DNA from: Spirochaetia bacterium
GTDB taxonomy: Bacteria > Spirochaetota > Spirochaetia > CADAEX01
Reading direction: 5' to 3'
Length of the DNA stretch: 64,000 nucleotides
Assembly: GCA_963662795.1 (NCBI GenBank)
Contig: OY759746.1
Span: 3,776,001 to 3,840,000, forward strand
Below the pieces are notes generated by a model, which had not been told where the DNA came from, made no database searches, and saw only the letters and a list, made by a program, of their open reading frames with translations. The stretch's first letter is position 1, and every line of letters starts with the position of its first letter. Both the position numbers and the translations under genes were made by a program. This document shows positions 11,254 through 57,836 of this stretch, piece by piece.

Positions 11254-11326
11254 TCCTCTGTAGCTCAGTCGGTAGAGCGGGTGGCTGTTAACCACTAGGT
11301 CGGCAGTTCGAGTCTGTCCGGAGGAG
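11254..11326 (+). tRNA. tRNA-Asn(GTT)
   Basis: Cloverleaf: acceptor TCCTCTG/CGGAGGA, D arm GCTCAGTCGGTAGAGC, anticodon loop CTGTTAA, T loop GTTCGAG; CCA not encoded. Confidence 0.97.
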
Positions 11327-11327
11327 T

Positions 11328-11367
11328 AAAAAAAACCTTCCATTTTTTGGAGGGTTTTTTTATTTTT
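11328..11367 (+). terminator. Intrinsic terminator after tRNA-Asn
   Basis: AAAAACCTTCCA-loop-TGGAGGGTTTTT stem plus T tract. Confidence 0.8.
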
Positions 11368-11395
11368 AATGTATATAAAGTTTACGGCGGGGAAT

Positions 11396-35537: not shown

Positions 35538-36728
35538 ATGATTGAAAAAATTGATAAACCTTTACTTATGGTAATTGATGATGAAAAAGAGGTGGGAGAA
35601 TTTATAAAGGATATAGCAGAGTCTATCGGATATGACTGCTATGCCACAACAAGCGTTAATGATTTTTTAGAATCCGTTAAACCCGGCATACATTGCATCA
35701 TAATAGACCTGATGATGCCGGAGCTGGATGGGATTGAATTGCTGAGAAAATTAAGCGCGCAAAAATGTGTTACCAAAATAATTTTAATAAGCGGGTTTGA
35801 TAAAAAAGTATTGAAAACCGCGGAAAACCTGGCGAAGTCATTAGGTCTTGAAACTGTCGGTATTTTAGAAAAGCCGTTTAATCTTGACGATTTGCAGACA
35901 TTATTAGCCAAAGCTAAAAATCAACTGCCTGTAACTAAATATCAAAATACAGGCAGACAATTTGTACAGCTGACAGAAGATGAAATTAAAGAGTCGCTGA
36001 AAGAAGGCTATATTTTCATGAATTATCAGCCTCAAATAAAATTACCGTCGCGCCAGGTTACCGGAATAGAAGCCCTTGTCAGGATCAGGCACCCTGTTAA
36101 AGGATTGATCCCGCCGGATATGTTTATTCCGGGAACTGAAAAGTACGGATTGATCAATGAGCTGACATTTCAGGTCATTGAAAATACTATTAGGGATTAT
36201 AAGAAATTATCCCCAGATCATGTTATAAGCATTTCCATTAACATTTCATCGAAATCACTTACAGACCTCTCCATTCCTGATAGACTGGTTAGATTAGCAA
36301 ATCAATACGATGTCAGCCTTGATCATTTTATTCTTGAAATAACAGAAAGCGGATTGATAAAGGAATATCAGAAAGCACTGGATATCCTGGTCAGATTGAG
36401 AATGAAAAATATGCATCTATCAATTGATGATTTCGGTACCGGATATTCTTCAATGTCCCAAATAAGGAAAATCCCCGCTTCGGAACTCAAGATAGACAAG
36501 AGTTTTATTAATGATCTTTTAACAGATGAGGGAGCCCGTTCCCTCATAATCAAAACTATAGAAATCGGCCACATTCTTGATATGATCGTCGTGGCAGAGG
36601 GAGTTGAGACGAAAGAACAGGAACTGGAACTGGAAAAGCTGGGATGTGATATAATTCAGGGTTATCTTTACAGCAAACCTCTTGATATTACTTGCCTTAT
36701 TGAGTGGATCAATAATTACAATAGATGA
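35538..36728 (+). CDS. Response regulator with EAL c-di-GMP phosphodiesterase domain
   Basis: REC (VIDDE, IDLMMP, EKPF) plus intact EAL, DDFGTGYSS, KIDKSF and AEGVET. Confidence 0.94.
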   Translation: MIEKIDKPLLMVIDDEKEVGEFIKDIAESIGYDCYATTSVNDFLESVKPGIHCIIIDLMMPELDGIELLRKLSAQKCVTKIILISGFDKKVLKTAENLAKSLGLETVGILEKPFNLDDLQTLLAKAKNQLPVTKYQNTGRQFVQLTEDEIKESLKEGYIFMNYQPQIKLPSRQVTGIEALVRIRHPVKGLIPPDMFIPGTEKYGLINELTFQVIENTIRDYKKLSPDHVISISINISSKSLTDLSIPDRLVRLANQYDVSLDHFILEITESGLIKEYQKALDILVRLRMKNMHLSIDDFGTGYSSMSQIRKIPASELKIDKSFINDLLTDEGARSLIIKTIEIGHILDMIVVAEGVETKEQELELEKLGCDIIQGYLYSKPLDITCLIEWINNYNR

Positions 36729-36987
36729 TCAGAAATTCCTATCGTAATAAACTGATATTGTGTCGCGGGTGCGGGAAACCTGGAAAACAATTCTCTGTAG
36801 ATTGTTTTCACTTCAAGAGATATTAGCTTCCTGCTGATTTTTCTTTTTTTCTGAAATTCGAATTCAGATTACAACAATCCGGTTTACCATTCCCATATAA
36901 GTTTTTATTCACTTTTTCCATACGTTCAAGATAATTCATAAAACTGTCTTTTATCTTTATAAAAAAGTTTTTCATTATACTTTCTCC

Positions 36988-37212
36988 TTATTTGAGTTTT
37001 TCTTTAAGCTGCTCAAATTCCTCAATACTTATTTCACCTTTTGCCAGGCGGTTTTTCAAAATAGCAAGAGCCTCATCATCATTAACACTTTTCCTGTTTT
37101 TTCTCGGAATAAAAACAACTGCAAGTACAATAATAAGTATTATTAATCCTAAAAACATATATCCTCCTCCATAAAAAGGAAATCTGCAGAACTGATTAAA
37201 ATAGTAACCCAT
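36988..37212 (-). CDS. Small membrane protein with SHOCT domain
   Basis: TM helix plus ALAILKNRLAKGEISIEEFE; GGAGG RBS. Confidence 0.85.
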   Translation of the reverse strand: MGYYFNQFCRFPFYGGGYMFLGLIILIIVLAVVFIPRKNRKSVNDDEALAILKNRLAKGEISIEEFEQLKEKLK

Positions 37213-37501
37213 GTTTCTCCTCCATAATTGTTAAACAATCTATATACATATAATATACTAATTCCTATGTATTTTATATGATATAAATGTGAAGATTTGA
37301 TGAATTGCAAGAATTATATGCAGGATTTGCCCGGCAGAACCCATCCCGTCAATGACATTTTCAAAATACCTGAACGAGAAAATCTGCTTTCCATATCCCC
37401 GTGGAGGGTGTAGGATACTGCCAAAGAAGCATTATTACGAAGAAGAAAAACACTATATACTCCTCTATACCAAAAAAAATATTCTCGAAGGAATAATATG
37501 T

Positions 37502-37939
37502 ATGCTTGAAATCAAAAGAATAGAAAATACAGACCTTAAGGATTTATCATTATTATTCAAAGAACTATCAGGCAAAAAGAGCATTTGGGAAAATATGATT
37601 AAAAACTTTGAATTGATCAATAAAAATGGAGATTATATTCTCCTTGGTGCCAAATATTATGGGGAACTGGTTGGTTCTTTAATGGGTATCCTCTGTCTCG
37701 ATCTTGTTGGAGAATGCAAACCATTTATGGTAATTGAAAACGTAATAGTGTTAAGTAAAGCAAGAGGTAAAGGTATCGGGAAAAAACTAATGATAGAGAT
37801 AGAAAGAATCGGAAAGAAAAAAAACTGTCATTACATAATATTTGTATCTGGGGCTAATCGAAAGGATGCTCATAAATTCTATGAATCTTTAGGCTATAAA
37901 CTTGATAAAGTACAAGGATTTAAAAAAATATTGGGATAA
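37502..37939 (+). CDS. GNAT family N-acetyltransferase
   Basis: IENVIV..ARGKGIGKKL, AHKFYESLGY. Start placed at the ATG 37502. Confidence 0.88.
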   Translation: MLEIKRIENTDLKDLSLLFKELSGKKSIWENMIKNFELINKNGDYILLGAKYYGELVGSLMGILCLDLVGECKPFMVIENVIVLSKARGKGIGKKLMIEIERIGKKKNCHYIIFVSGANRKDAHKFYESLGYKLDKVQGFKKILG

Positions 37940-38439
37940 AAAATTTTATCTAAAATGTACAGGGAAAGTAATTACCTGAAAGTCATCCTTATCCTGCGAT
38001 AAATTACACTTTTCATATCCCAATGATTGATGCAGAAAATCCGATAGCAAATTATTGGAATATAAACAGAGTGTGCACAGGTGAGTAATTACCCCTCAGG
38101 CGTCCACCCCCGGACATTCACCATGGCCTCCACAGCAAGCGCCTCCAGCTTTTTGAACTGCAGAACAAAGCCGGTTATAAGACTTTTTTATTATTTGTTC
38201 TTGTTTTAATACCAAAAACACATTATAACATTCTTCAGTTGAAGATAACAGAAAAAACTGGAGGGTTTCACGGGAATTGAAATGTATAATAATACTGATG
38301 AGCAAAGTATATATTATATCAGAAAAAATTTAATGACTTATAATCTGAAGCATCTGGAAGTAAGGGACAGGAATAAATATTTGCGAGACATAGACTTGAA
38401 TGCTGAAAAATTAATTTTAAAGAAATATTGAGGCAGATA

Positions 38440-38991
38440 ATGAATGATAAAAACAGGAAATTATCAAATCCCTTAAGGGTAGCGGAATTATCCCCGGCAG
38501 AAACGCTTAAAAAAATCGGATTTAATAAAAATGACGTTCTGTGCGATATTGGCGCCGGCACAGGTGTTTTTACTTTTCCGGCAGCTCTAATAACCGGGAA
38601 CTTTGTATATGCCCTTGATATAGACAAGGATTCACTAGATATAATAAAAGACACAGCTTATAAAGAAAACCTGACAAACATCAAGACACAGCTTATATCA
38701 GGTTACCCGTATGAATTAAATGCTGAATCCATGGATTTAGTTCTGCTTTGTACGGTTTTTCATGAAATAGAAGCCAAAGAAAATCTGTTAAATGAAATAA
38801 GAAGAGTGATGAAAAAGGGAGGAAAACTTGCGTTTATTGAATTTCACAAGCGGCAGACTCCCATGGGACCTTCCATATCTCACCGCATCTCTAAGGAAGA
38901 AGTAATGCAATCTGCGTTAAGTATGGGCTTCATTAAAGCAGAGGATTTTGTTCTCGGAGAGAATTTTTATTGTATTGTATTTAAAAAATAA
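38440..38991 (+). CDS. Class I SAM-dependent methyltransferase
   Basis: DIGAGTG, YALDI, VFHEI, EIRRVMKKGG. Confidence 0.88.
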   Translation: MNDKNRKLSNPLRVAELSPAETLKKIGFNKNDVLCDIGAGTGVFTFPAALITGNFVYALDIDKDSLDIIKDTAYKENLTNIKTQLISGYPYELNAESMDLVLLCTVFHEIEAKENLLNEIRRVMKKGGKLAFIEFHKRQTPMGPSISHRISKEEVMQSALSMGFIKAEDFVLGENFYCIVFKK

Positions 38992-39088
38992 TATCTTTTA
39001 GAATGTCTAGACTGTTATTAATATAACCTGCCAGGTACAATTACCTTAAAACAGTTATTTACAATTCAGCTTACCGCGAAAAAACAAT

Positions 39089-39134
39089 CCGCTGACTGGG
39101 ATCGGACCCGTGGCAAGATCATTACGGGTGATCC
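39089..39134 (-). repeat. Degenerate copy of the tRNA-Thr(CGT) 3' part (old att site)
   Basis: 39 of 46 nt identical to 47394-47439, same orientation. Confidence 0.85.
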
Positions 39135-39311
39135 TCTAGCTTCAGTTATACATGTGGTTCGGCGATGTAAGCTTTCACTTGACCGGAAGACCGCCCCGCT
39201 GTATGATTTTATCAGATGTCCGGTGATCCTGATGCGTATCCGGCCCAAGGGGTTCCGGGAGCAAAAAATATTTCCGGCTTCATATCCTGCGGAATGAGGT
39301 CTGTTATAATA

Positions 39312-41263
39312 ATGAGTATGTACCCGTTTACAGCCATTGTCGGTCAGGAGGCCATGAAAACAGCCCTGGTTCTTCACGCAATTGACCCTTCAATAGGCGG
39401 AGTGCTGATCCGGGGGCAAAAAGGAACTGCCAAGAGTACGGCAGTACGGGCGCTTGCCGGTCTTCTCCCTCCGATTCAGGCAGTTGAGGGATGTCCCTAC
39501 CACTGTCCGCCGAATGCAGATTTCTATATACATGAAGACTGCCGGAAGAAATCACAAAGCGGTGTTTCTTTTACTTCAATTGAGTGTCCGGTCCCGCTGG
39601 TCGAGCTGCCTCTTGGGGCTACCGAGGACAGACTTGCAGGGGCGCTGAATGTGGAGCGCGCCATTCGCGCAGGAGAGACAGTATTCGAACCAGGTTTGCT
39701 TGCAGCAGCCAACCGCGGCATACTCTATGTTGATGAAGTAAATCTTCTTGACGATCATCTGGTAGATCTTCTTCTTGATACAGCTGCATCCGGTATAAAC
39801 CATGTGGAACGGGAGGGGCGTTCTGTACTTCACCCGTCCAGGTTTATACTAATCGGCACCATGAACCCGGAAGAGGGGGAACTCCGCCCTCAGTTTCTCG
39901 ACCGTTTCGGCCTCTGCATCGGTGTTGCAGGAGAACAGGATATAAAAAAGCGCAGCGAGCTTGTCCGGCGGCGTCTTGCTTTTGAAAGAGACCCAATTGC
40001 ATTCTGTAATTCATGGAATGAAGCCCAGAGCGTTCTCCGCCGGCAGATAGTAAAAGCCCGCAGGAATCTATCCAGTGTATCCATCCCGGATGAAGCAATC
40101 GATGCAGCATCAGAACTGGCAATTAAAGTCGGTTCCCAGGGACACCGCGCAGAGATAACAATAGCAAAGGCTGCATCAGCCCTTGCAGCCTTTCAGGAGC
40201 GCGAGTCTGTAACACATGCAGATATAATTGAAGCAGCAACCATGGCACTGCCTCACCGCATAGACCGTTTTATCGAGCATGGCGGAGCAGACATTCCGAA
40301 AGAATTAAATGAGGCGTTATCTGCCGTTTTCGGCGAAATACCGTTTGTTCATAACGGGGATAAAACAGATGCTGACGGCAAATTTCCTGAGTTCGGCCTT
40401 GACGAAGATATTTTCCCTGGTTCCCACGCGGGCGGCATGCCCATCTTCGTATACTTAAAAAAAAAGCATCCAGCATTGTCCTTTTAGCAGACGAAACACC
40501 GCTTCGCCTCTCCTTTGAGGAGCACAACAGTCTGCCGAGACGCAAGGAGGTCCGCCCTTCCATCTGCGGCCGCCATATCGCGTCAATTCCACTTCAATCC
40601 GGAGAACATATAAATGAAATTGATCCCATTGCGACCTGTCTGGCAGCCGTTCTGCGCAAGAAACAGGGAAACAATGTTTTTGAAGATCACAGTGTTAAGG
40701 CACAGGATCTCAGGCGGCGGCTCCGGGTACAGCCTGTCAGAAAGACAATTATCTTCCTGATTGACGCATCAGAATCCATGCTGGTAAGTGAACAGATAAG
40801 ATTAGCAAAAGGAGCTGTTTTAGGTCTTCTTACCAGGGCTTATCAAGAGAGACACAGGGTCGGTGTAATTGTTTTTCGCGATTTGCGTGCAGAGGTAGTT
40901 CTGCCGCCTACATCAAGCATTACCCTTGCCCGAAACGCCCTTCAGGCCGTAGCTGCCGGAGGAGGAACTCCCTTTGCAGGCGGATTACAGGCTGTACTCA
41001 GGGTGGTCCGTTCTGAGCGCATCCGCCATCCGAATGACATTCAGCAGATGGTTCTGGTAACAGACGGGAGGCCGTCTATTACCATGCAGCCCGGGGCAAA
41101 CATGAGACAGGAAGTTTTATATATAGCGCATCAGTTTCCTGCCAGGAACATTCCGGCAATTGTTCTGGTTACGGAAGATACCTGCGATCTTATCAGGGAG
41201 GTTTCGGTTGAAATGAAAGCGCCTCTCCGTAAAATATCTGAGGTGGTTCAGAATAATTTTTGA
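39312..41263 (+). CDS. chlD: Mg/Co-chelatase chlD/cobT-like gene: AAA+ ORF (39312-40487) fused by a -1 frameshift to a linker plus VWA domain
   Basis: [49 protein letters not shown]. The -1 frame is open from the A9G run (40457-40466) through [23 protein letters not shown] and VTDG to the TGA at 41263. Confidence 0.88.
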
Positions 41264-41318
41264 TTGACAAAAGCTGCTTATAACCTGCAGGTTTCCTTAA
41301 AATAATCATAATATCAGG

Positions 41319-41343
41319 ATCCTGCCGCTTAATAAGGCAGGAT
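41319..41343 (+). terminator. Hairpin after chlD (possible terminator)
   Basis: ATCCTGCC-loop-GGCAGGAT. Confidence 0.5.
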
Positions 41344-41365
41344 TACTTATGCATTTCAAATAATA

Positions 41366-41380
41366 AAAGCCGATGACGGG
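41366..41380 (-). repeat. 15-bp direct repeat of the tRNA-Thr 3' end (att core)
   Basis: AAAGCCGATGACGGG is identical to 47390-47404. Confidence 0.8.
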
Positions 41381-41602
41381 AATTTTATTTTAAAAATCAA
41401 TAAAATAAAGACTTTTTTAAATTGATATATTGCAGAAGAAACCAACAATGTTATTAATAAAAATATTATCCCAGCTTCTAAGGTTGGATCCATTTTGGGA
41501 CACAAAAAAAAAGGACATAATCCTCTATGGCTTTGTCTATCACGGAATAATCAATATATTTATATATTGATTAAGTATCAATTCTATTTATAATAATTTC
41601 AC

Positions 41603-42007
41603 ATGAACTTGAAGATATCAGATGGTAATTTACCAGATTATATACATATAAGCATTGATGAATATCCAACTCCCGCTAATTTTGAATTATTGGTTGAGGA
41701 GATTTTTTCTTTACCGTTATGAAAATCAGGATTAAATGTAATAATTAACATTATAGAAGAGAATAACCAAACCTTTTCACTGGATGATGTGTATTTATAT
41801 GAAAGAATAATATCCAGACATCTGGATAAACTAAAAAAATCACATTGCGCTGTAGTTTTAATAGATTTATGCAACCCTGATATTCACGAAATTTTCAAAT
41901 TGATAATTCAGCATAAGTCCAACAAAAGAATCCGTTTATTTTGCACTGAAAATGAAGCTGTTGCCTGGATAAAAGAAATTATCAGTAAAACAGTTGTTAC
42001 AGACTGA
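41603..42007 (+). pseudogene. SpoIIAA-like (STAS/SEC14-type) small protein interrupted by an in-frame TGA
   Basis: The ATG at 41603 is in frame with the 41789 ORF; single TGA at 41720 (LPL*KSG); C-terminus IRLFCTENEAVAWI. Confidence 0.6.
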
Positions 42008-42152
42008 TTAAATATTTAAAGATAAAAAAGGGGAAAACCCTTATGTGTCAACAGAAGGAAACTGCTTTTCATATCCGCGAGGCGGTGATAAACATAACAA
42101 TATTTCCACCCCTGAAATCAGGGTTCAACTAATGTGTCTTATTATCTGATCA

Positions 42153-44228
42153 TTATTCAACCTTGAATTTGACAACCTCTGATGTTAACTCCTGAAGATT
42201 AGTTTTTGTATCCTGAGTAATTTTATTTACATTCTGGACTGCAATATTAATTTGTGCAGCACCGGATGCCATTTCATCCATGCCATTACTCATTTCTACA
42301 GTTATATTTGTTAGATTATTCATCTCATTGAGTACTTCTTTACTTCCTGATCGCATTTGTGATGAGCCATTTTGAACTTGTGTTGTTATATTATTTATTT
42401 CCTCAAGGGCCTGAAGAATCTGTACACTACCAGTACTTTGTTCATCCATTGCGTTTTTAATCTCCGTTTCCTGATTTTTAACCATATTCAAGTTCTCTAC
42501 TATCTTTGAAAATTGCAACTGAGATTTATCTGACAAAACGGCAGCCGAATTTATCTGAGTTTTTAAATTCTTCAGGACATTCGAAATAGCTTTTCCTTGA
42601 GATGAAGAATTTTCTGCCAATTTTCTTATTTCATCCGCTACAACAGCAAATCCTCTCCCAGAATCCCCGGCATGTGCAGCCTCTATTGCAGCATTCATTG
42701 CCAGAAGGTTTGTCTGACTTGCTATGCTTTGAATAATATTACTGGCATCAATTAAACCATCTGAATCATTTTCTATTACCTGCATTATTTCAACAACTTC
42801 ATGAATACCAATTTTCCCTGATTCTGAAGCCGTAAGTAATTCTTCCATGGAAATTGCGTTTTTATTTAATATTCCTGCAACAGATTTTATATTTGCAACC
42901 ATTTCTTCTATTGATGATGAAGACTCTGTAATTGCTGAGGTTTGACTGCTAATTAATGTATCGAGATTTATAATATGTTTTTCTATTTCTTCAACTGTTG
43001 AATGAGTTTCAGTAACTGATGCTGACTGATTTACTATCTGCTGTTTCAAACTGGAAATATTTGCAGAAATCTGATTCATGGAGGATGCTGTTTCAGTCAT
43101 ATTTGAAGATAAATCGTTAACAACTTCTGCTAATCTGCCGGTCGATTCTTTTGTTGTCAAAACCATTTGTGCAAGACTATTCATTGATAGATTATAATAT
43201 TTGGCAACCTGCCCTATTTCATCACCTGAAGAATCTTCAAGTCTACGGGTAAGGTCTCCATTTCCTTCTGAGATTTCCTTGAATATATTAGCCATTTTTC
43301 TAATTGTTCCAGATATTCTAAAACTCAAATAAATACCAATTGCTATTATAAGCAGAGTTGCAATGCTAATAATGGCCCCAATTGTAGCATAAGAGGAAAT
43401 AATTGTTTTTAATGTATTACTTTGAATGTTACTTGTTGATTTAACAAATTCTTTATCCAGGTTATCGAGCAATATTCCAATGTCATTTTCAAGATTCTTT
43501 ACCTTATTTATATTACTTACATATTCTGTACAAATTCTGCTAATTTCCATATTAGATTTTTGGGCGACAATTGGCATTTCCCGAAATGGAGTATTCGATA
43601 ATTTCTCGATATCCACTTCTGTATTTTGAATAAGTCCTTCAATAAATGATAAAAGATCTTCTGCTGCATTATTATCATATGAGATTTGATAGAACAAAGA
43701 GTGTATATTTAAATTGTTAACTGTATTTATATGTGCACCAATAATTACTTGTTTTTCCAGAGCTGATACAGGAATACCTTTTATCAAATTCGCTACTACA
43801 AGTTTTATATAGTTATCAGATTGCAACATGGAGGATTTTGTTAATTCCATTACCATTTTTTCTATTTCTATATTTTGATATTTTATAGTTTTAACTTGAT
43901 TAAAATAGTTTTCGAGATTATTAAAATCGTTTAGTAAAGTTGAGTCATTTGAAATAGATTGTTTTATCTCTGTCAAATCAGCAAAAAATTTATTTTCTTT
44001 GTCTATTGTTGGTATTGATTCTTTAATATATAAAGTGCCTTGTTCCTTTAACATTTTCACATTAAATGAAAGATTTAGAATATCATCAACTTTTTTCATA
44101 TTTTGTTTTGAATTAGAAATAGCGCTAAATAACTGACTTGAAAATATTAAAATAACAAAAACCTGAATTAGTGCGGGAATTAATAATTTTGTTCGTAAAT
44201 TTAGTGATTTTTTTGAGTATTTACGCAT
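42153..44228 (-). CDS. Methyl-accepting chemotaxis protein
   Basis: Two TMs, HAMP (GDLTRRL..DEIG), [35 protein letters not shown]. Confidence 0.95.
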
Positions 44229-44803
44229 AACTTTCTCCACTTTCAATATTAATATAATTTTTAATTTCAAATACAATTTTTGATAAACTTTATTTATTAC
44301 TTACATATAAGAATTTGTCAATATAGTAGCTATATTATTTATCATTAAACACTATCCATGTTAATCATTACTTTTTAGGATAACAATAGAATCTCTTGAA
44401 GGAACAATTCAAGAAATTACTTATGGACGGTATCGATATGAAAGGCTTAAACCTCCATTCAAATAGATTCGCATTTATATATTTTACATTGTAAGTTAGA
44501 TTTACCCGTAAGTAGTAGAAAAACAATGGTAATATTCTGCATCACTCAACAATATCCAACAAATTCCCAAGCAGTCGACAATAATTGAAAATACCTTACA
44601 CTTATAAAGCCCGCCCTTAGCTTCCAGCCGTACAGTCTGGACAAGATCAAAACTCTTGCTGCTTTAAAATCTCCTCCCACACCAGCGCCTCCTGCTCTGT
44701 CAGCAGCAGATCAAAACCGGCATTAAGATTGTACTGAAAAAAATTTGATTTTTATACGTTACATAACTATACTTATTTAAGTTCACATCAAAAGAAGGTA
44801 ACA

Positions 44804-45193
44804 ATGTCGTGCCAGTTTTTAAAATCAGCCGATGATGATTATTTAACCTTATTTTATACTGGAAAAGTTAATCGTGAAATAATATTTGATAATACGATAA
44901 AGGCTCACAAATTTGGCAGAAAGAATGGAATAAAAAAGTATTTTACCGATTTAACAAAAGCAATTAATACTGACGATAAGAAAACTGTCACTGACTTTAT
45001 TGCAATTGATATGAAAAAATCAGCTTTTATTGATAAGGAAGCTGTTGTTGCAATTTTTGTTGCCCCCGATGATAATTCTCATGATTTTATTGAAGCTGTT
45101 TCTGAAAAAAATGGTTATAATGTAAAGCTTTTTAGGGACCGGGAAAAGGCTATTAAATACCTTCAGGAAACTAAAAATCCGGCTATCTCCTGA
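44804..45193 (+). CDS. Hypothetical SpoIIAA-like (STAS/SEC14-type) protein
   Basis: 129 aa; YFTDLTKA and C-terminal VKLFRDREKAIKYL pattern. Confidence 0.6.
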   Translation: MSCQFLKSADDDYLTLFYTGKVNREIIFDNTIKAHKFGRKNGIKKYFTDLTKAINTDDKKTVTDFIAIDMKKSAFIDKEAVVAIFVAPDDNSHDFIEAVSEKNGYNVKLFRDREKAIKYLQETKNPAIS

Positions 45194-45283
45194 TATGTCG
45201 AAGTAAGTATTTCACTTAAATCTCATTCAATTCAGCCTCAGTCTCCATTTTTAACAGGTAAAACGGGCGGGATGATTCAACTT

Positions 45284-46417
45284 TTATCTGAATAGTTTTA
45301 AATAATCATCAAAAATAAACAATCTATTTCTTTGATTTTTAGTTGCTTCTTTCAGAATTGATTTTTCAACAAATATTTGGACCAAGGCATTAGCAGCCTT
45401 TGGTGACAAATCCGTTATCATTTGTACTTCTTTTATATTTACTAATGGTTTTGAGAACAATTTGTGTAATAAAATTGATGCTTGACTGGTTCGCTTTCCC
45501 ATAAAATGTATTTTTTCTCTTGTAATAATATCTTTAAGTTCAATTATTTTTTGCAAGGTTAAAACAGCTGTTTTTGAAGTTTGAATTATTCCTGTGAGGA
45601 AAAATTTTATCCACTGCTTGAGATCGTTTTTTTCTCTAACTAATGTTAAATTATCATAATATATTGATTTATTCTTTTCAAAAAAATCTGATAAATATAA
45701 TAATGGTTCTCCCAGAATGCCATTACTTACGAGATATAATGTTATTAGCAATCTTCCAACACGTCCGTTTCCATCAAGAAATGGATGAATTGTTTCAAAT
45801 TGGTAATGTGCAATAGCTATTCGTATTAAATGGGGAATCTTTATTTCCTTATTATTTAGAAATTTTTCAAAATCTGATAATAATTCAGGTAATTCAGTAT
45901 GTATTGGAGGAATAAAAATAGCATCTTTTAACGATGCTCCGCCAATCCAGTTTTGTGAATTTCTAAATTCCCCAGGTGTTTTATGTTCACCGCGTACACT
46001 AGATAACAATACTTTGTGAGCATTTTTAATCAATCTGTTGGATATTGGAAGTTTTTTTAACTCTTCAATAGCAGTATTCATCGCCCGAACATAATTATTT
46101 ACTTCCTTCCAATCATCTTTTTTCTCTGGATCAATATTTTCCTCTTCTATTAGTGCTTCGTCAATATTAGTCTTCGTTCCCTCTATCCTGCTTGATGTAA
46201 CAGCTTCTTTTAAAATATGCATTACGATAAAAACATCTTTATCAGGAATAAACCGTGAAAATGAATTCAACTCTCCTAAATTAAAAGAAGATTCTTCTAA
46301 TAATTCATTTATAACTTCATCGTCCCATGTTAAAGAATGATTAATTTTTTCCAGAAGAAAATACTCATATTGATGGCCTTTTTCCCAATGCCCAGCAACA
46401 AAATCTCTTAAATTCAT
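45284..46417 (-). CDS. Fic family protein with C-terminal HTH
   Basis: EAVTSSRIEGT, HYQFETIHPFLDGNGRVGR canonical Fic motif. Confidence 0.93.
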   Translation of the reverse strand: MNLRDFVAGHWEKGHQYEYFLLEKINHSLTWDDEVINELLEESSFNLGELNSFSRFIPDKDVFIVMHILKEAVTSSRIEGTKTNIDEALIEEENIDPEKKDDWKEVNNYVRAMNTAIEELKKLPISNRLIKNAHKVLLSSVRGEHKTPGEFRNSQNWIGGASLKDAIFIPPIHTELPELLSDFEKFLNNKEIKIPHLIRIAIAHYQFETIHPFLDGNGRVGRLLITLYLVSNGILGEPLLYLSDFFEKNKSIYYDNLTLVREKNDLKQWIKFFLTGIIQTSKTAVLTLQKIIELKDIITREKIHFMGKRTSQASILLHKLFSKPLVNIKEVQMITDLSPKAANALVQIFVEKSILKEATKNQRNRLFIFDDYLKLFR

Positions 46418-46524
46418 ATCTTTTCCTCTTAATAAAATATAAATATCCTTATTTTACTTTACGGCATTAAAGTAAAATAAGAAATATCTTGTTTTACTTT
46501 TTTTTAAATTTAAGCACCTTATTT

Positions 46525-47258
46525 TTATCCTGTTTTGAAATTCCGGTCTATTTGATCCCTGACTTCCTTATACTGCTGCAGCAGGGTTTCCGGATCCCTG
46601 TGATCATATTCTTTCCTGTAATTTGTATGTCCCATCAGTGCATTAACCGTGTCCTTGTCCGGATACTGCAGTATTTTAGTATCAAAGGTGTGCCGGAGAA
46701 GGAATATTGTGTCCGATCTCCCAGGATAACACCTGGCCCTCACGCAGGATGCCTTAAAATGTTTATTTGAAACATCCTGTTATAATCCGGTATTCCGGGG
46801 AGAAGTAAACAGTAAATCATTTATATTTTGCTGCTTTTCATCAAGGTATTTCTCTGGTTGAATAATAATGCAATATTTTTATAAATTGGGGTCAAGTCAA
46901 CAAATCGCTCATCAATCACTGGAGCATTTATAGCTGATAGAATTAAACCTCCGAATTTCGGTATCCAGTAATTTTGAAGAAGCCCCTCTCCTGAGCGCCA
47001 GTAATCTTCTGAGAAAAACTTTTCTTTTTCTCAAGACTTTTGCGATAACCATATTTATTATTTATAAAAAAACTGTAGAGAAATAGCGGAAAGTCTTAAC
47101 TTTAATGTTTTTATTATCAAAATTACTTAAATATTTTTCAGCAAACCCTACAGTTTCTTCAATATTAGTAGTATCTGTAGAGATTTCTTTACCGGGTAAT
47201 ATTTTAAAAAGAACCTGCATACTTGCCTTTCGTTTTTAAACCGGCAATCATCACTCAT
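46525..47258 (-). pseudogene. Decayed tyrosine integrase next to tRNA-Thr
   Basis: C-terminal fragment LRHTF...LMGH...Y (46525-46743). Frameshifted N-terminal fragments (ISTDTTNIEETVGFAEKYL; LLQNYWIPKFGGLILSAINAPVID). The middle of the gene is missing. Confidence 0.75.
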
Positions 47259-47391
47259 AGTATTACCAGTACAAACGACTATTTTAAGGCATCAAGACAG
47301 CAAATAGGGACATTTTCACATCTTAAAGCATTTATGTATAAATAAATATTTATACTATAAAGACTTATAATTATTTATGGCTTAAAACGAA

Positions 47392-47464
47392 AGCCGATGA
47401 CGGGGATCGAACCCATGGCCTGATCATTACGAGTGATCCGCTCTGCCAACTGAGCTACATCGGC
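47392..47464 (-). tRNA. tRNA-Thr(CGT)
   Basis: Reverse complement GCCGATGTAGCTCAGTTGGCAGAGCGGATCACTCGTAATGATCAGGCCATGGGTTCGATCCCCGTCATCGGCT; anticodon loop CTCGTAA. Confidence 0.97.
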
Positions 47465-49363: not shown

Positions 49364-49708
49364 ATGAATACTGTAAATGAGAGCATGATGTTTTATGATA
49401 ACAGCAAAATTGAGCAGTTAAAGGCAGCAGCAGCCGGAAAGAAGTTTACTCCGGAAAACAAGGAACTTTACAACGCCTGCTCCGAATTTGAGACAATCTT
49501 CATAAAACAAATGCTTGACTCCATGAGAAAAACAGTGGAAAAAACCACTCTTTCCGAATCTTCAACAGATACAACAGGGATGAATTATTTTGAGGATATG
49601 CTTTATGATGATTACGCTAAAAAAATGGCAAAAACAGCTAACCTCGGGATAGCCAAAATGATGTACCTGCAGCTATACAAATCAACTTCCAGGCAGGGTG
49701 ATTTTTGA
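49364..49708 (+). CDS. flgJ: Short FlgJ (rod-binding domain only)
   Basis: ACSEFETIFIKQMLDSMRKT, FEDMLYDDYA, LGIAKMMYLQL. Confidence 0.85.
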   Translation: MNTVNESMMFYDNSKIEQLKAAAAGKKFTPENKELYNACSEFETIFIKQMLDSMRKTVEKTTLSESSTDTTGMNYFEDMLYDDYAKKMAKTANLGIAKMMYLQLYKSTSRQGDF

Positions 49709-50637
49709 GCAGATTTGAGTTTAAGATAAAACTTCTAATATCAGGGCTGTTATTATTAACAGCCCTTTTAATTGCAATACTGATCTTTTTCAGGCCCGTG
49801 GATTCACCTGAAATTACGGGTGAGTACCCCGTGGAAACTAATAAAAGTGTTCAGCAAGAAGAAGATGCCGCTATCAGTGAAAATGCTTCCGGCGGCAGTA
49901 ATATTGCATTAAAAACTATTCCGGCTCCGGATAAAAGTGAATACAGGGCTGCGACTGTTAAAAAAAAAGAGAAAGCTCTTTATTTCATAATTGATGATGC
50001 AGGATACAGCCTTGAGAAACTTAAACCCTTCCTTGATTTTCCGGGCAATCTTACTATCGCGGTCCTTCCCGGTCTTGAGTATTCAAGGCAGTCGGCAGAA
50101 CTGGCCCTTGAAAAGGGGAAAAAAGTAATACTTCATCAGCCGATGGATGCAATAAACGGGAACAATACCGGCCCCTTTGCGATAAAAACAGGCATGGATG
50201 AAAAAACAATAACCGCTATTCTGGAAAAAAATATCAACGCCCTTCCCGGGATAACAGGGGTCAACAATCATATGGGATCCGCTGTTACTTCTGATGAAAG
50301 AATGATGGACATAATACTTAAATTTCTGCAAAAGAAGTCTCTTGTATTTATTGACAGCCTAACCACTGCGGAATCGGTCAGTAAAAAATCAGGCGCAAAG
50401 ATCGGCTTCGCTATTGAACAAAGAGATATATTTCTGGATAATGTCGACACTAGGGAAGGGATAATGGAGTCATTAAATACAGGACGCCTGGAAGCGGAAA
50501 ACAAGGGATACGCAATAATGATCGGTCATGTCTGGTCATCAGAACTTGCAGACACGATGATGCAGATATATCCGAATCTGATTGAGGAAGGATTCACCTT
50601 AAAGGATGCAAGCGAATTCCTTTTGGGGGAAGAATAG
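49705..50637 (+). CDS. Divergent polysaccharide deacetylase family protein
   Basis: N-terminal TM, IIDDAG, LHQPMD, NNHMGS, DSLT, RDIFLDN, IGH. Confidence 0.9.
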   Translation: MSRFEFKIKLLISGLLLLTALLIAILIFFRPVDSPEITGEYPVETNKSVQQEEDAAISENASGGSNIALKTIPAPDKSEYRAATVKKKEKALYFIIDDAGYSLEKLKPFLDFPGNLTIAVLPGLEYSRQSAELALEKGKKVILHQPMDAINGNNTGPFAIKTGMDEKTITAILEKNINALPGITGVNNHMGSAVTSDERMMDIILKFLQKKSLVFIDSLTTAESVSKKSGAKIGFAIEQRDIFLDNVDTREGIMESLNTGRLEAENKGYAIMIGHVWSSELADTMMQIYPNLIEEGFTLKDASEFLLGEE

Positions 50638-52115: not shown

Positions 52116-55025
52116 CTATGCACACTCATCAACAGTGACATGGATAACAGTATGCGACATGATATCAAAAATAGAGCCGGGATCTATATATTTTTCATCG
52201 GTAAGGCACTCGTACAAGGATCTTTCGGAATAACTGTTCTCGATAGATCTTCTTATTTCCTTTTTATAAATATTATCCAGAAAATCAATATCATCGACAT
52301 GCGTCGAAATAATGCTTCGTATCGAATCATCCTGAATTTTCTCTTCACATACATCCTTAATCACAAGTGCTTCATCATCAGATATTTTATATTTTTCACG
52401 GATACCATCAATAACTTCTTTAACTGTTACTTTTTGCGGCTTTCTGTTTCCTTCGCCTGAACAGCCATTTTTTTTCTTTTGTTTCCCTTCAAGTCTCTTC
52501 TCGCCAATATAAGAAACAGCAGCCTTGATTACATAAATTCCCTTCATTATTTTCTTCAGCTCAGATTCTGACCCCGCTTTCAGCATCTGTGGTACCATAA
52601 ACTCGGCAAAAATACCAAAAATCAAAAGATCTTTCTTAATCTCAAAAAAATTGCTCATAAAAATGCAGTCGGAACTGTATTTAGCCAAAATCCCGATATA
52701 TTCTTTTTGCCGCTCACTATCCTGTATTTTACTTTTGAAAAGTTTTCTTAGGTTATTTGCATGAGCCTGTAAGGCGGCATCTGAGCCAGCCTGGATTATT
52801 TCAACTGCTTTTTTTGCTGTAGCCAGGCTGTAAACATTCCAGGAAAGTATTTCATCATATAGCTTCTCAAGCTTTCTTAAATCCGGTTCAATGGGTTCAA
52901 AAGGCGTTCCTTCACGGTATTTTTTAAAAGCCTTGATTATCTCATCCGCATTATTTGTGAAATCCACAACTACAACCCGATCTTTATTCTCATGACAACG
53001 ATTTAAACGTGATACTGTCTGAACAGCATTCCGGCCGCCGACAGGTTTATCAAGAAACATTCCAGCCAAAAGCGGCTGGTCAAAACCTGTCTGGAATTTA
53101 TTGGCAACAATGAGAAGGCGATATTTATCTGTATCAAATAAATCTTCTATAAGCTCACCACTTCTCATTCCGTTTATTTGCTGTTCTGTAATTTCTTTCC
53201 CAGTCTCCGGATTTGTAAAATCTGAAAATGCATATAGGACATCATACTGATAACTATTCGAATCTGCTTTTCTTTTTTCCCTTAATTTTTCCCTGAAAAC
53301 CTTATAATACTCAAGACCTGCTATCCGCGAAGCTGTAACAATCATTGCCTTTGCCTTACCGCCTATCAGGTAAGAAATATTTTCTTCGAATATTCTCAAG
53401 ATAAGTTCTGCTTTGTACTGGATCAGTCCCTTATCCTGATAAGCTATGTTTTTCAGCATTTTACTGATAATTCCGGGAGGAAAGGTCTTGTCATCCTTGA
53501 AAGGAATAATCCGGCTCTCAAGATTATACAGCGTCTCATATGAAATAATGCTTGAAGCGACATCAATAATATAACCTTCCTGAATCGCTTCTGATTCTGA
53601 ATATACATCAAAGGGCGCTCCAAACAACTGGACTGTCGATTGACCTGGAGTTGCAGTAAACGCGACTGTCATTAAATTGGGAAATTCTGCTTTCTTGAGT
53701 TCTTCGTTTATTGCCTCTTCCTCATCAAATGCCTCCTCAACGACAACCGGATCATCTTTTTTGAATAAGTTGCGAATATTTGTGCCTGATTTGCCTTCCT
53801 GAGACCTGTGCGCCTCATCGATCAGTAAAGCAATGTTCAAGGATTTCAAATAAGGATCATTTTTCAGTTTATCAATAATCCAGTTTATTTTCTGTTGGGT
53901 TGTAACAATGATTTGTTCCCGGTTTTTAATGTATCTGGGTAAATCGTCTGCTTTTCTGGCAAATTTCATTTTGTAACTTAAATGCGTGAAATTACCCAGT
54001 TCATCACGGACATTTTTATCCAGTACTTTCCTGTCTGTAAGGATAAATACAATATCTATAATTTTTGTACTTGTTCCCGGAACATAAAGACTGTTCAATC
54101 TGTCTGCCAGCCAGGATATTGTCAGGGTTTTACCTGAACCTGCAGAATGATTTACTAAATATCTCTTGCCGCAATTCTTATTCTCGACAAAAAATCTGCT
54201 CAGGTCACCTGTTAAAGCTGTGACTACACGAGATTGATGATAGCGAGGGAAAATGGTAAAAGCCGTTTTTTCCTGAGTATCTTCAGATGCGGGAGTTTTA
54301 GGCACATATATTAAAAAAAAGCTAAGCATTTCCAGTATGGATTCCCTGCCCAGCACATAACGGTATAAATATTCCACAGGATACTCATTCGGGTTTTGCG
54401 GTTGATTGACAAGACCGGTATTATACCAGCGGAAATTTTCTTCACGGGATGGGTTTGTGGCAGCTTTTACTTCGCTGGTGTCGGAAGCAATATAGAGAAA
54501 TGGGAGCTGAAATATTTTATCTTCATGATTCCGGCCTGCAAACTGGGTAACCGCATCATGTACATTTTGATTTCGCTCATGTTTCAATTCAATAACTATT
54601 ATGGGTAACCCATTCAGGAAAAGAACAATATCAGGACGTTTTTCTTCACCTATTTCCATCTGTGGAATAAATGCAATTATATTATTTTCAGGATTTTCTG
54701 ATGATTCCTGCGATCTTGGTATGCGGTCAAACAGTTTAAAGTGAACTCCCCTGACAGTTATCCCGTTGCGAAAAATTATCCAGAGGGGTTTATGGTTTGT
54801 TTCATCTTTTATAGCCCTGATAATTTCATCGTCAGTATCGGTCCCGTAATTCTTTTCAAGCTCATAATATCTGTAAAGCTGTGTTTTTCTGAGATAAGAG
54901 ATCAGATCATTTTCGGCCAGATACCATTCTTTATCTGTCAAACTGGAATTTCCATACTTTTTATATCCATGAATACTGGATAATGCGTTCTCAAAGTGTT
55001 TTTGAAAATCCAGTTCTGTTCCCAT
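52116..55025 (-). CDS. hsdR: Type I restriction enzyme R subunit
   Basis: RPDIVLFLNGLPIIVIELK nuclease motif, HSAGSGKT, DEAH, FTATP, KFQTGFDQP, QTVSRLNR. Confidence 0.95.
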   Translation of the reverse strand: MGTELDFQKHFENALSSIHGYKKYGNSSLTDKEWYLAENDLISYLRKTQLYRYYELEKNYGTDTDDEIIRAIKDETNHKPLWIIFRNGITVRGVHFKLFDRIPRSQESSENPENNIIAFIPQMEIGEEKRPDIVLFLNGLPIIVIELKHERNQNVHDAVTQFAGRNHEDKIFQLPFLYIASDTSEVKAATNPSREENFRWYNTGLVNQPQNPNEYPVEYLYRYVLGRESILEMLSFFLIYVPKTPASEDTQEKTAFTIFPRYHQSRVVTALTGDLSRFFVENKNCGKRYLVNHSAGSGKTLTISWLADRLNSLYVPGTSTKIIDIVFILTDRKVLDKNVRDELGNFTHLSYKMKFARKADDLPRYIKNREQIIVTTQQKINWIIDKLKNDPYLKSLNIALLIDEAHRSQEGKSGTNIRNLFKKDDPVVVEEAFDEEEAINEELKKAEFPNLMTVAFTATPGQSTVQLFGAPFDVYSESEAIQEGYIIDVASSIISYETLYNLESRIIPFKDDKTFPPGIISKMLKNIAYQDKGLIQYKAELILRIFEENISYLIGGKAKAMIVTASRIAGLEYYKVFREKLREKRKADSNSYQYDVLYAFSDFTNPETGKEITEQQINGMRSGELIEDLFDTDKYRLLIVANKFQTGFDQPLLAGMFLDKPVGGRNAVQTVSRLNRCHENKDRVVVVDFTNNADEIIKAFKKYREGTPFEPIEPDLRKLEKLYDEILSWNVYSLATAKKAVEIIQAGSDAALQAHANNLRKLFKSKIQDSERQKEYIGILAKYSSDCIFMSNFFEIKKDLLIFGIFAEFMVPQMLKAGSESELKKIMKGIYVIKAAVSYIGEKRLEGKQKKKNGCSGEGNRKPQKVTVKEVIDGIREKYKISDDEALVIKDVCEEKIQDDSIRSIISTHVDDIDFLDNIYKKEIRRSIENSYSERSLYECLTDEKYIDPGSIFDIMSHTVIHVTVDECA

Positions 55026-55468
55026 TATACTTCCCTGCTGATTGCTTCAAATATTTTCAGCTTTAATTCTTCATCATCCATATTATCGTCTATTACGGCC
55101 TGAATAATATCACGCAGCAGTTGCTTTTCAATTTTACCTGCTGCCAGATGATAACTGATATTCTCCATTTCCCGGATAAAACGGGAAACAACAAAAATAT
55201 ACCCGTTTAGAAGTAAAAACTGTGCACCTAACGATATTGCTATCCGTTTATTGCCGTCTTCAAAACAATGAAACTTGTTTGCACAGAAAAAAAGATGGGT
55301 TAATTTGTCTGTGAAATCAGGATAATAAAGATCATTCTGAATATGAGTCAAGACACTTTCGAGCCGGCCCATATCCAGAACTCCATCAGAACCGCCGCCG
55401 CTGACCTCAATTGTCCTGTGATATACTTCGAGAGCATTTTCGATGGTGATATAAACAGTCCGGCTCAA
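55025..55468 (-). CDS. Doc/Fic family protein
   Basis: GVLDMGRLESVL and HCFEDGNKR (Doc-type Fic motif); 147 aa. Confidence 0.88.
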   Translation of the reverse strand: MSRTVYITIENALEVYHRTIEVSGGGSDGVLDMGRLESVLTHIQNDLYYPDFTDKLTHLFFCANKFHCFEDGNKRIAISLGAQFLLLNGYIFVVSRFIREMENISYHLAAGKIEKQLLRDIIQAVIDDNMDDEELKLKIFEAISREV

Positions 55469-56490
55469 TCTCGCTCCTTCAGACGTTTAAACACATCCTT
55501 GGCTTCTTCCAGACGCTCAGCCAGTTCCCTGCTTTTCTGCCCGATGAAGCGTTCGAATTCATCAGCCTGCACCGGTGAAATATAATCTTTAAGCTGCAAA
55601 TGCAAAGCATCCCGGAAAGCCAAATCACGGCTTGCCATTTTGGTGCGGGCACGTTCCACAAGGGGTTTCCAATGAGGCTGTTTTTCAAATTCGGAGAATA
55701 AGGCATCAACTTCAAAGCCTGTAAGCATGGAACCTTTCTTCCTATATGCTTCTTCCAGGGTTTTGGCAAAACCGTATTCATAGGAGGCTACCAGATCCAG
55801 TATTTCCGAATAAAACGTATCCCGAACCTTATCTTTCTCATGCAGCTTTAATATCTTTCGGTATTCCCGGGAATTCTCCCTGAAAATGCTTACATATATC
55901 TTATCTGTATAAAGCGGATATTTGAATTTTCCCATATCGAGACAGTTTTGCAGGGCATCGGTAAATTCTTTTCTATAGTTCTCTTCCTGAAAATAGGAGA
56001 TGATGAAGTCTTCGTCGCGCTGGTTTATATATTTGGTTGAGCCGCCGGTTTTCCTGTTTATGGTGTCAATTACAATATCCAGAATCATCTGTCGGAGGAT
56101 TTTAGCTTTCCCGCTTTCTGTAATGAGCATTCCCAGGTTTAAAAAGGAGCGGAAGTCAAAAACAGCAAGGCTGGGAGCCTTCTTGATGTCCCCGAAATAC
56201 ATTTCGGGGACATCTGCCTCCGATATGGCTAATTTCAGTTCCTGCAAGGCTTTACCCCGCAGTACCTCGTAACCGTTTTGCTTTAGTTCCTTTTCATTTT
56301 TTGATAGATAAAGCTCAATAGTACGAAGACTTACCTCAAAGAAATCAGCAGCCTGTTCTTTTGTCAGAACAGCTTTCCCTTTATAGCTTATGGTATGGAT
56401 CCCGACATTTTTCTGAATTTCTTCCAGAGCATAGGGATTGTTGAGGATATTCTGCCGTTCTACTCCTGATACAGTGAGGTCTTTTGCCAT
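55465..56490 (-). CDS. Putative DNA-binding protein (N-terminal RhuM-like HTH)
   Basis: LTKEQAADFFEVSLRTIELYL HTH-like segment; coupled to both neighbours. Confidence 0.7.
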   Translation of the reverse strand: MAKDLTVSGVERQNILNNPYALEEIQKNVGIHTISYKGKAVLTKEQAADFFEVSLRTIELYLSKNEKELKQNGYEVLRGKALQELKLAISEADVPEMYFGDIKKAPSLAVFDFRSFLNLGMLITESGKAKILRQMILDIVIDTINRKTGGSTKYINQRDEDFIISYFQEENYRKEFTDALQNCLDMGKFKYPLYTDKIYVSIFRENSREYRKILKLHEKDKVRDTFYSEILDLVASYEYGFAKTLEEAYRKKGSMLTGFEVDALFSEFEKQPHWKPLVERARTKMASRDLAFRDALHLQLKDYISPVQADEFERFIGQKSRELAERLEEAKDVFKRLKERD

Positions 56491-57836
56491 TATACAGCCT
56501 CCGGTATATCAGTTTCGGTTATCCGCCTTTTTCCGGTAACGCATTCATGGATCAGGGATTTTTTGTAACCTTCCAGTTTTTCTATCTGGAGGGTGATTTT
56601 TTCTTCACTACTAAATATTGTTTTTATTTTCAAACTTAGAAATGAGGAAATCTCTTTTTGAATTTTTAGTGGAGGGAGCGCAATATGTAGATAACCAAAT
56701 TTTTCTTGATCCATAATTGGTAATGTTGTATATTGAGCAATTCTTGGTATTTCCTCTTTCATGTGCAATAAAAAATAATAAATATATTCAGTGCAAACAG
56801 AATTCATTAGTTCCAATCCTATAATTTGTTGATTACATGAACTGTCTACATCAATAATACCCACTTTCCCTATTGTTGCACCTATTCCAACCCAGAATAT
56901 GGACTCCTTTTTGAAGATTCTTAATTTGTTTTCATAATAAGCAGATTCGTTTATTAATTTTTGGGGGATTTCTAAAATCATATTTTTATCATAACATGCG
57001 GGTGCATACCATGGGATTGTGCCATCAATATAAAAATCCGTTCGTTCCGTTGGTGGGGTTGTCCCAGTCTGGACTCTATAAGCTGTTCGCTTTAATCGTT
57101 TAACTTCCCATGTATTAGGAAATTCTCCTATCCACCCAATTCCAGAATCTTTCATCTCTACCGAATCATCCAGCCCTTTTGTCACAGCTTTGTAGATGAT
57201 GGATTTCTTAAGCTCTTCCAGTTTTTTCAGCTGTTCCTTTTTTACAGAAATCGCTTTGTTAATTATAGCGGTGGTTTTATCCAAGTAAGCGGAAATCATT
57301 TTTTGTTCAGGGAGGGGAGGTAGAAATATTTTTGTATGCTTGATAAATCTGGATGAAATCCTTTTTTGACCAGCTGCACCAGTCATGTTGACTTCTGCAT
57401 ATTTTCTAAAAATCGGATTCCAGGTATAATAATAAAGAAAAGTAGCTATTATTTTACTTGTCGGTCTATATACGTGAAACTCTGTACTGCCAAAAGCGTA
57501 TTTTGTTGGCAAAGATTCTATAAATGCGCCTTTCCCATTTTCCATACACGGTGTAATTTTAGCTATTATGACATCCCCGTTTTCAATCAGATTAAGACCG
57601 GAAGAAATGTCTATAAATGGTTGTAATAGTTCCGTATCGTATGTTCCATCATCATTTACTTTTTCCATAGGCAATAGGGTGCATTCATCAAAATCTGAGG
57701 GCTTATTAGAGCTAAATGAAGGACCTAAGTACGCGACATCTTTTAGTCGCCAATATTTCCAGTTACCTGGAGTATCACCAATCCAGATCAGTGAATCTTT
57801 TCTAAGTAATTCTGGTACATTTACTGTCTGCATCAC
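56490..57836 (-). CDS. hsdS: Type I restriction enzyme S subunit
   Basis: Two TRDs with conserved repeats (PPLPEQ, MKDSGIGWIGEFPNTWEV, KKSLIHECVTGK). Confidence 0.95.
   Translation of the reverse strand: MMQTVNVPELLRKDSLIWIGDTPGNWKYWRLKDVAYLGPSFSSNKPSDFDECTLLPMEKVNDDGTYDTELLQPFIDISSGLNLIENGDVIIAKITPCMENGKGAFIESLPTKYAFGSTEFHVYRPTSKIIATFLYYYTWNPIFRKYAEVNMTGAAGQKRISSRFIKHTKIFLPPLPEQKMISAYLDKTTAIINKAISVKKEQLKKLEELKKSIIYKAVTKGLDDSVEMKDSGIGWIGEFPNTWEVKRLKRTAYRVQTGTTPPTERTDFYIDGTIPWYAPACYDKNMILEIPQKLINESAYYENKLRIFKKESIFWVGIGATIGKVGIIDVDSSCNQQIIGLELMNSVCTEYIYYFLLHMKEEIPRIAQYTTLPIMDQEKFGYLHIALPPLKIQKEISSFLSLKIKTIFSSEEKITLQIEKLEGYKKSLIHECVTGKRRITETDIPEAV

Follow-up and report, generated by a model that had tools for sequence, protein, structure and literature searches.

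A chlD-type gene of a spirochaete with a conserved slippery site, very probably encoding both a ChlI-like and a ChlD-like product

Frameshifting in chlD genes has been described by Antonov 2013 (PMC3711429, in the part available) and Kuznetsov 2022 (PMC9227772), as the original prediction for the present locus had noted. The available part of Antonov 2013 describes and tests a magnesium chelatase frameshift cluster with members from Pseudomonas, Burkholderia, Delftia, Herpetosiphon, Methanocaldococcus and Methanococcus. Reporter cassettes of this gene family with 11, 9 and 7 A residues shifted at 63, 40 and 10%, respectively (PMC3711429), and the accessible text of PMC8211752 repeats the 2013 frameshift result only. 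The products of frameshifted chlD (fs-chlD) genes fall into size classes that include small (250–500 aa) and medium (500–800 aa) proteins, and a downstream stimulator is usual in these genes but not obligatory (PMC9227772). The Pseudomonas and Methanocaldococcus members are proposed to serve CobN, and the fs-chlD genes of Spirochaeta thermophila and Brevefilum fermentans occur without cobN or chlH ("stage 1", partnerless) and have a function that was stated to be unknown (PMC9227772).

The gene analyzed here belongs to the published fs-chlD kind, and its recoding is in itself already known. It resides in a 64-kb stretch of DNA from a Spirochaetia bacterium, referred to as the window, and displays the following features.

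39312..40487, plus strand: 0-frame open reading frame (391 aa, 42.4 kDa) with a ChlI-like AAA+ module, a helix, an acidic linker and a conserved C-terminal motif
39414..39437, plus strand: presumed Walker A motif (GQKGTAKS), from alignment to BchI 1G8P
39492..39542, plus strand: C-x3-C-x8-H-x2-C motif (C61, C65, H74 and C77)
39720..39737, plus strand: presumed Walker B motif (ILYVDE), intact, from alignments
39900..39911, plus strand: DRFG, from alignment
40413..40466, plus strand: conserved peptide motif (F)PG-x2-A-x-G-x3-F-x2-LKKK that runs into the slip site
40455..40466, plus strand: slippery site TTA AAA AAA AAG (A9G), read from the sequence, with A9G identical in the two close loci L001 and L002
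40467..40487, plus strand: dual-coding overlap of HPALSF-stop (0 frame) and the first seven −1-frame codons
40466..41263, plus strand: −1 frame of 265 codons, with a ChlD-type linker and a VWA domain, that completes the 650-aa product
40763..40777, plus strand: MIDAS DxSxS motif (DASES), with the MIDAS T at 40967 and D at 41063
41319..41343, plus strand: hairpin of 8 bp with a 9-nt loop after the stop, seen in the sequence, with no U run and absent from the terminator scan

The slippery sequence and the AAA+ ORF stop at 40487 read exactly as originally predicted. The A run consists of nine residues (40457–40465) followed by G at 40466, and the site contains both A_AAA_AAA and A_AAA_AAG in phase, with the 0-frame TAG stop (40485–40487) close behind. 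The −1 frame is devoid of stops from 40403 to the TGA at 41261–41263; frame reading and Pfam agree with the earlier description of this frame as a ChlD linker and a VWA domain with an intact MIDAS, open to 41263. Pfam assigns Mg_chelatase, AAA_5 and AAA_lid_2 to the 5′ part and VWA_2/VWA to the 3′ part. TIGR02442 is the best NCBIfam match for both halves, at profile positions 1–312 and 409–618, and the N- and C-terminal parts of ChlD are adjacent and in order with one frameshift between them. The long product would comprise 385 + 265 = 650 residues, and the lengths of 391 and 650 aa fit the small and medium fs-chlD classes. The ATG at 39312 is consistent with the alignment of relatives as the start, and translation probably does not begin at the in-frame ATG at 39216. 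An A9 run alone is unremarkable, since A9 and T9 each occur three times in the 64-kb window; it is the conservation, phase and position of this run that are not due to chance. A second A9G run is located at 49960–49968 inside a 310-aa ORF (49705–50637), in which the ORF list shows no break. The hairpin at 41319–41343 is a possible transcript end.

The AAA+ module (residues about 3–320 of the 391-aa product) matches BchI 1G8P by sequence (E 1e-98) and by fold (TM-score of 0.73 by query and 0.89 by target), and the AlphaFold model of the short product has a mean pLDDT of 82. We take DRFG to be the arginine-finger motif and GHR at 40140–40148 to be sensor-2-like. At the level of sequence, the Walker A and B motifs, arginine finger and MIDAS of a class I chelatase motor are all intact. 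The profile scores of the gene fall below the curated cut-offs: TIGR02030 (BchI/ChlI) gives 422 bits against 467, the two halves, scored separately, reach 472 and 158 with TIGR02442 (sum of about 630 against 779), and the score for TIGR02031 is also under its cut-off. The C-terminal 70 residues are predicted by AlphaFold with a confidence below 50 except for a weak helix at residues 377–385, and they yielded one weak Atlas lead (0.77).

Three sequence motifs characterize the gene and its relatives. The C-x3-C-x8-H-x2-C motif is invariant across 32 aligned close sequences and occurs in this C3H form in 108 of the 120 listed protein matches, while other loci mostly display a four-Cys form. It is absent from the two PDB BchI/ChlI alignments compared and is a possible metal site. 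A literature search on the Cys motif found nothing relevant among the matches listed, which is not proof that the motif is unpublished. The four-Cys form was also found in most fused and cobN-linked relatives. The second motif, PG...[FL]..KK, is observed near the end of 114 of the 116 short proteins among the 120 listed matches; P369 and G370 are invariant in 111 sequences, and the codons of PG...LKKK differ at synonymous positions. The PG...LKKK peptide marks a subfamily. Its retention in in-frame fusions favors a structural role over that of a pure nascent-peptide stimulator, although the peptide possibly acts as such a stimulator. The third motif, the HPxLxF tail, is conserved in the close clade only, and dual coding may explain this conservation.

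The window gene resembles the partnerless fs-chlD genes (PMC9227772) in that a single chlD-like gene contains a −1 shift at an A-rich site with an in-frame stop nearby, has a short and a long predicted product, resides in a spirochaete or Chloroflexi host and has no large subunit (here, within the window). The two clades recovered in this study, the PG...LKKK clade and the Chloroflexi clade, mirror the hosts S. thermophila and B. fermentans of that study. The window gene differs, with S. thermophila compared by description, in its lack of a significant downstream stimulator, and the available PMC9227772 text contains no mention of the PG...LKKK peptide, the HPxLxF tail or the C3H motif. Like the Antonov 2013 cluster, as presented in the accessible part of that paper (PMC3711429), the gene has a predicted −1 shift at a poly-A site (A_AAA_AAR) between two roughly 1-kb annotated ORFs and has homologues that occur fused elsewhere; its run has the nine-residue length that was measured at 40% in a cassette. 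In contrast to that cluster, no cobN is found nearby, and the clade is separate from the cobN-linked genes in the tree.

BchI/ChlI, ChlD and CobS/CobT likewise exhibit the AAA+ fold, intact ATPase motifs and a VWA domain with a MIDAS, but here a single gene would supply both subunits, with the same intact AAA+ module in each. Compared with BchI/ChlI, the gene also encodes an additional Cys/His insert and extends the C-terminus by 70 aa. In dnaX, the E. coli ribosome shifts at A_AAA_AAG, and the Thermus shift is transcriptional, on a run of nine; by either mechanism, one gene gives two subunits of an AAA+ ring, as proposed for the window gene. The dnaX shift leads to the short product, whereas the shift in the window gene leads to the long product, and unlike in dnaX, no SD-like or hairpin stimulator was identified in the window gene. 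The MoxR AAA+/VWA chaperones NorQD and CbbQO, in which an AAA+ ring works with a VWA adaptor on a client according to the available part of the source (bioRxiv 10.64898/2026.10.09.757910), provide a model for a partnerless motor. However, NorQD and CbbQO are each encoded by two genes, and the window sequence is ChlI-like and not MoxR-proper.

A genome scan, of which the best 80 of 619 stretches represent 78 loci, placed the break in a wider context. Two of these loci belong to the close clade, L001 and L002, both from Oceanispirochaeta MAGs. Both read (C/T)TA AAA AAA AAG, then six codons, TAG and a VWA domain in the −1 frame, and they align with the window without gaps over 341 nt. Exactly A9G is therefore present in three of three close-clade DNA sequences (window, L001 and L002). 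Downstream of the 0-frame stop (40488–40660), 35 of 70 mismatches to one of the two loci (p=0.003) and 37 of 63 to the other (p=3e-5) occupy third codon positions of the −1 frame. The −1 frame retains 31 and 35 of 56 residues over this interval with zero stops, whereas the other frames retain 14–20 of 57 residues and contain 3–7 stops. The −1 frame after the stop is, by this codon-position pattern, under purifying selection. The only ATG, GTG or TTG in this frame between 40403 and 40780 is that at 40778, five codons past the MIDAS D at 40763. The ORF listed from 40778 begins past DxSxS, as the original prediction had pointed out, with no earlier start of these types in its frame from 40403 on. 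The third-position bias lies ahead of any such start in the window and thereby indicates protein-level selection on the sequence before it.

Among the 78 loci, 21 contain an A run just ahead of the AAA stop (A9 in 13 loci, A10 in four, A8 in three and A7 in one). The in-phase A_AAA_AAA heptamer is found in all 21, and 20 of them encode the VWA domain in the −1 frame. The remaining one, L005, combines an A10 site with a second frame break in the linker (11100–11500), which is either an error or decay. A Methanomicrobium chlD-like gene in L040 (2600–2900) adjoins cobN and is split in the −1 direction with no A run, through either an error or a different shift site; it was grouped with the "other" loci in the cobN counts given below.

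Protein relatives display the same break. The 391-aa query was scored against 8000 candidates, with fused forms of up to 685 aa eligible, and 120 matches were listed. Of these, 32 are 68–93% identical to the query, all are 336–409 aa long, and none is fused. The tail KKK[HL]PxLx[FS] ends 30 of the 32 close relatives; the other two are a partial protein and a protein from a 1.4-kb contig (P0033) whose frame past the run differs. In total, 116 of the 120 listed matches are short, and four are in-frame fusions of 673–682 aa at 53–56% identity, which carry the PG...KK motif followed by the linker and VWA domain. These four relatives indicate that the long product occurs naturally. The −1-frame query gave 71 matches among 3077 candidates, and 37 of them are short pieces with 55–89% identity. 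The annotated starts of the 37 pieces are spread over −1-frame positions 38–126, with seven past DxSxS, and this scatter argues against a conserved independent start. For 18 of the 32 N-terminal halves, the longest contig is identical in size to that of a C-terminal half, as expected if both halves lie on one contig. No protein of 502–2000 aa with a close-clade VWA domain was found, the best identity being 46% (120 listed of 133 matches, 5272 candidates). A 306-aa protein (P0128) joins roughly its first 58 residues straight to the linker-VWA part, which suggests an internal deletion or a faulty assembly. In this clade, annotation routinely and wrongly turns the VWA half into a gene of its own, often a truncated one.

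The conserved break, the conserved phase of A9G and the selection on the −1 frame together point to one gene with two products, very probably of 391 and 650 aa. These data agree with the earlier proposal of a single gene that gives a ~391-aa I-like and a ~650-aa D-like subunit. The alignment of homologues that had been suggested as a check revealed a slip site conserved in both close DNA loci, and the two outcomes named as contrary evidence, an A10 error or homologues all in frame, are contradicted by the 32 unfused close relatives and by A9G in both close DNA loci. That the frameshift happens in vivo seems nearly certain from this conservation, and the fuller description, an fs-chlD gene whose single mRNA yields two proteins by a −1 shift at A9G, is highly probable on the same grounds. 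The locus adds a well-supported fs-chlD member and a sizeable clade to the known set.

In the proposed mechanism, ribosomes that remain in frame would stop at 40485 and release the 391-aa ChlI-like AAA+ ATPase. At the three lysine codons, a fraction of ribosomes would slip into the −1 frame and go on to complete the 650-aa ChlD-like protein, composed of the AAA+ module, linker and VWA domain. The most likely route is tRNA-Lys slippage on A_AAA_AAA/A_AAA_AAG, possibly with a contribution from RNA polymerase slipping on the A9 run. How often the shift occurs would determine the proportion of motor and adaptor subunits in the AAA+ ring, and the VWA MIDAS of the long product would grip a client protein. 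The assignment of the short product as the ring and the long product as the adaptor is an analogy drawn from CobST and further AAA+/VWA pairs, as described in the accessible portions of two preprints (bioRxiv 10.64898/2026.10.09.757910; 10.64898/2026.07.21.739949). By the same analogy, the two products are likely to co-assemble.

The remaining value of the locus lies in the client of this motor, which touches a question posed in PMC9227772, the role of an I/D-type motor without a large subunit. No CobN or ChlH was detected among 33 Pfam-scanned proteins of the window, and tblastn with three CobN-cluster proteins gave no match, in line with the original prediction; a second chlI was also absent from the 33 proteins. 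Across the scan, cobN (PF02514) occurs in the available flanks of 0 of 21 frameshifted loci versus 38 of 57 others and, among loci with flanks of 8 kb or more on both sides, of 0 of 13 versus 22 of 31; these counts are not independent because the frameshifted loci represent two clades and two singletons. In a midpoint-rooted FastTree phylogeny of 121 AAA domains (78 loci, the window and 42 of the 120 matches), the PG...LKKK clade comprises six frameshifted loci and the window (support 0.98), and the Chloroflexi clade comprises 13 frameshifted loci (0.99); the other two are singletons. All cobN-linked genes are located in a separate clade (0.96), which includes one of the frameshifted singletons. 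All-against-all clustering of 990 ORFs from the 78 loci and the window did not identify a specific partner gene. A Pfam search of the 75 nearest neighbors of the 21 frameshifted loci detected generic families only (MFS transporters, sugar kinases and peptidases). Some neighbor synteny exists among the close Chloroflexi; as neighbors vary from locus to locus, the context does not indicate a function.

One alternative concerns this function: the products may form an ordinary class I chelatase motor that serves a large subunit of the CobN (or HmuS/ChlH-like) type from another part of the genome. Both halves match TIGR02442, a putative cobaltochelatase profile, best, the fold is like that of BchI/ChlI, CobN is the proposed partner of stage-8 fs-chlD genes (PMC9227772), and the large-subunit search covered the 64-kb window of this genome. 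The lack of cobN near the 21 frameshifted loci, compared with 38 of 57 others, nonetheless makes a chelatase role doubtful, with flanks as the scope of these non-independent counts. Moreover, no cobalamin or FecCD-type neighbors appear among the 75 flanking ORFs, the scores lie below the curated cut-offs, and S. thermophila, which contains an fs-chlD gene, is reported to be without cobN and chlH (PMC9227772). The ordinary chelatase is accordingly a plausible reading that we place below even standing. The earlier designation as a chelatase stands as a family name; as a function, it is called into question by the frameshifted loci without nearby cobN.

Whether the client is something other than a CobN/ChlH subunit is evenly balanced. 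We tentatively suggest a more specific reading, in which the anaerobe subfamily defined by C3H and PG...F..LKKK would be a chelatase-independent AAA+/VWA remodelling motor with a non-CobN/ChlH client and a subunit ratio set by the frameshift. In such a motor, the nascent PG...LKKK peptide would possibly tune the shift in place of RNA structure, and the conserved HPxLxF C-terminus might set the short subunit apart. The hosts of the subfamily, named from the labels attached to the search matches, are Oceanispirochaeta-type spirochaetes and Desulfuromonas-type deltaproteobacteria, and the subfamily is widespread. Pull-down and knockout work could start from the named isolate Oceanispirochaeta crateris, which carries a close orthologue (P0025).

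The second alternative concerns the mechanism: the two products could arise mainly through RNA-polymerase slippage, with ordinary translation of those transcripts that have acquired an extra A (A10). A ribosomal −1 slip and a transcript with an added A should both place three lysines at the junction. A run of nine A residues is the stated threshold for efficient bacterial slippage in the accessible part of PMC5009743, runs of at least nine are present in 17 of the 21 loci and fit either mechanism equally well, and reporter efficiency climbs with run length (PMC3711429, available part). No clear 3′ stimulator is evident in the window either: single-strand folds downstream of the site are not significant (z = −0.6 to −1.1). 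Only L002 folds well (z = −2.6). The consensus hairpin of the three sequences begins about 20 nt past the site; part of its pairing is lost in the window, and its covariation term is close to 0. An internal SD-like stimulator was rejected; the G-rich codons are located about 20 nt upstream and are synonymously variable. The excess of long runs and the lack of significant 3′ structure in the window keep polymerase slippage under consideration. However, four of the 21 loci have fewer than nine A residues, and all four are in the −1 heptamer phase (chance of about 0.10, weak), the 7-A cassette still shifted at 10% in the accessible data of PMC3711429, and the close clade retains exactly A9G. The four short in-phase runs tilt the balance weakly toward the ribosome, and a mainly ribosomal shift is modestly favored, with polymerase slippage the less likely main source of the long product.

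Two separate genes, the second begun by re-initiation or at a rare start codon, are a very improbable arrangement. Databases annotate the 3′ part as its own ORF, and ATT and CTG codons occur in the −1 frame. Yet the window has no ATG, GTG or TTG ahead of DxSxS, the relatives have no common start, the post-stop ATG of L001 and L002 is in the 0 frame, and the selection on the −1 frame reaches back toward the slip site. Homopolymers are error-prone, and in-frame relatives exist (four of the 120 listed matches, 53–56% identity), but an assembly error or pseudogene in place of an in-frame chlD gene with A10 is exceedingly unlikely in view of the 32 unfused close relatives from several sources, including the named isolate P0025, the identical A9G in two other genomes and the conserved 0-frame tail and stop.

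The setting of the frameshifted gene is distinctive in composition. Its GC content of 0.50–0.51 is the highest of 41 coding segments measured; the two ORFs upstream have 0.32–0.37 and the first ORF downstream has 0.31. In L001 and L002, too, the orthologue exceeds its surrounding locus in GC content. The "mini-island" of the original prediction is nevertheless not established: the GC3 of 0.46–0.47 is within the range of housekeeping genes, no integrase was found among the Pfam-scanned window ORFs, and no tRNA gene is adjacent. An exact 10-bp direct repeat lies in near-palindromes at both edges of the GC-rich stretch (39022–39036 and 41279–41292), with weak further similarity downstream. The palindrome pattern, which was chosen after being seen, is found nowhere else in the window, and the repeat was not found around L001 or L002. 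Among 780 pairwise comparisons of post-stop regions, nine, counting this one, show a common 10-mer. Given the post hoc choice of pattern and these nine pairs, the repeat is only a lead; it may be the scar of an insertion or a repeat that follows genes.

A 240-nt leader (39075–39311) with a GC content of about 50% precedes the gene and contains a long imperfect hairpin at about 39091–39140. A riboswitch or other ncRNA was rejected, with no credible Rfam match at 38950–39400 and fold z values of 0.1 and 0.7; the leader is not conserved in L001 or L002, and its frames have no Pfam match. Across the window, Rfam detects two tRNAs only.

The region at 36700–47400 is AT-rich and contains small unrelated genes (a GNAT protein, a methyltransferase, an MCP, a 129-aa unknown protein and a Fic protein), and it looks like a variable region. 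The AT-rich stretch ends at tRNA-Thr(CGT) (47392–47464). A type I restriction-modification cluster occupies 52116–59854 and comprises hsdM, hsdS, a 341-aa ORF with no Pfam match and hsdR. The window also contains flagellar, chemotaxis and housekeeping genes, which together with the names attached to the nearest relatives suggest a spirochaete host, and tandem elongation factor G genes are located at 135–1826 and 2113–4197, the first of which is probably cut by the start of the window.
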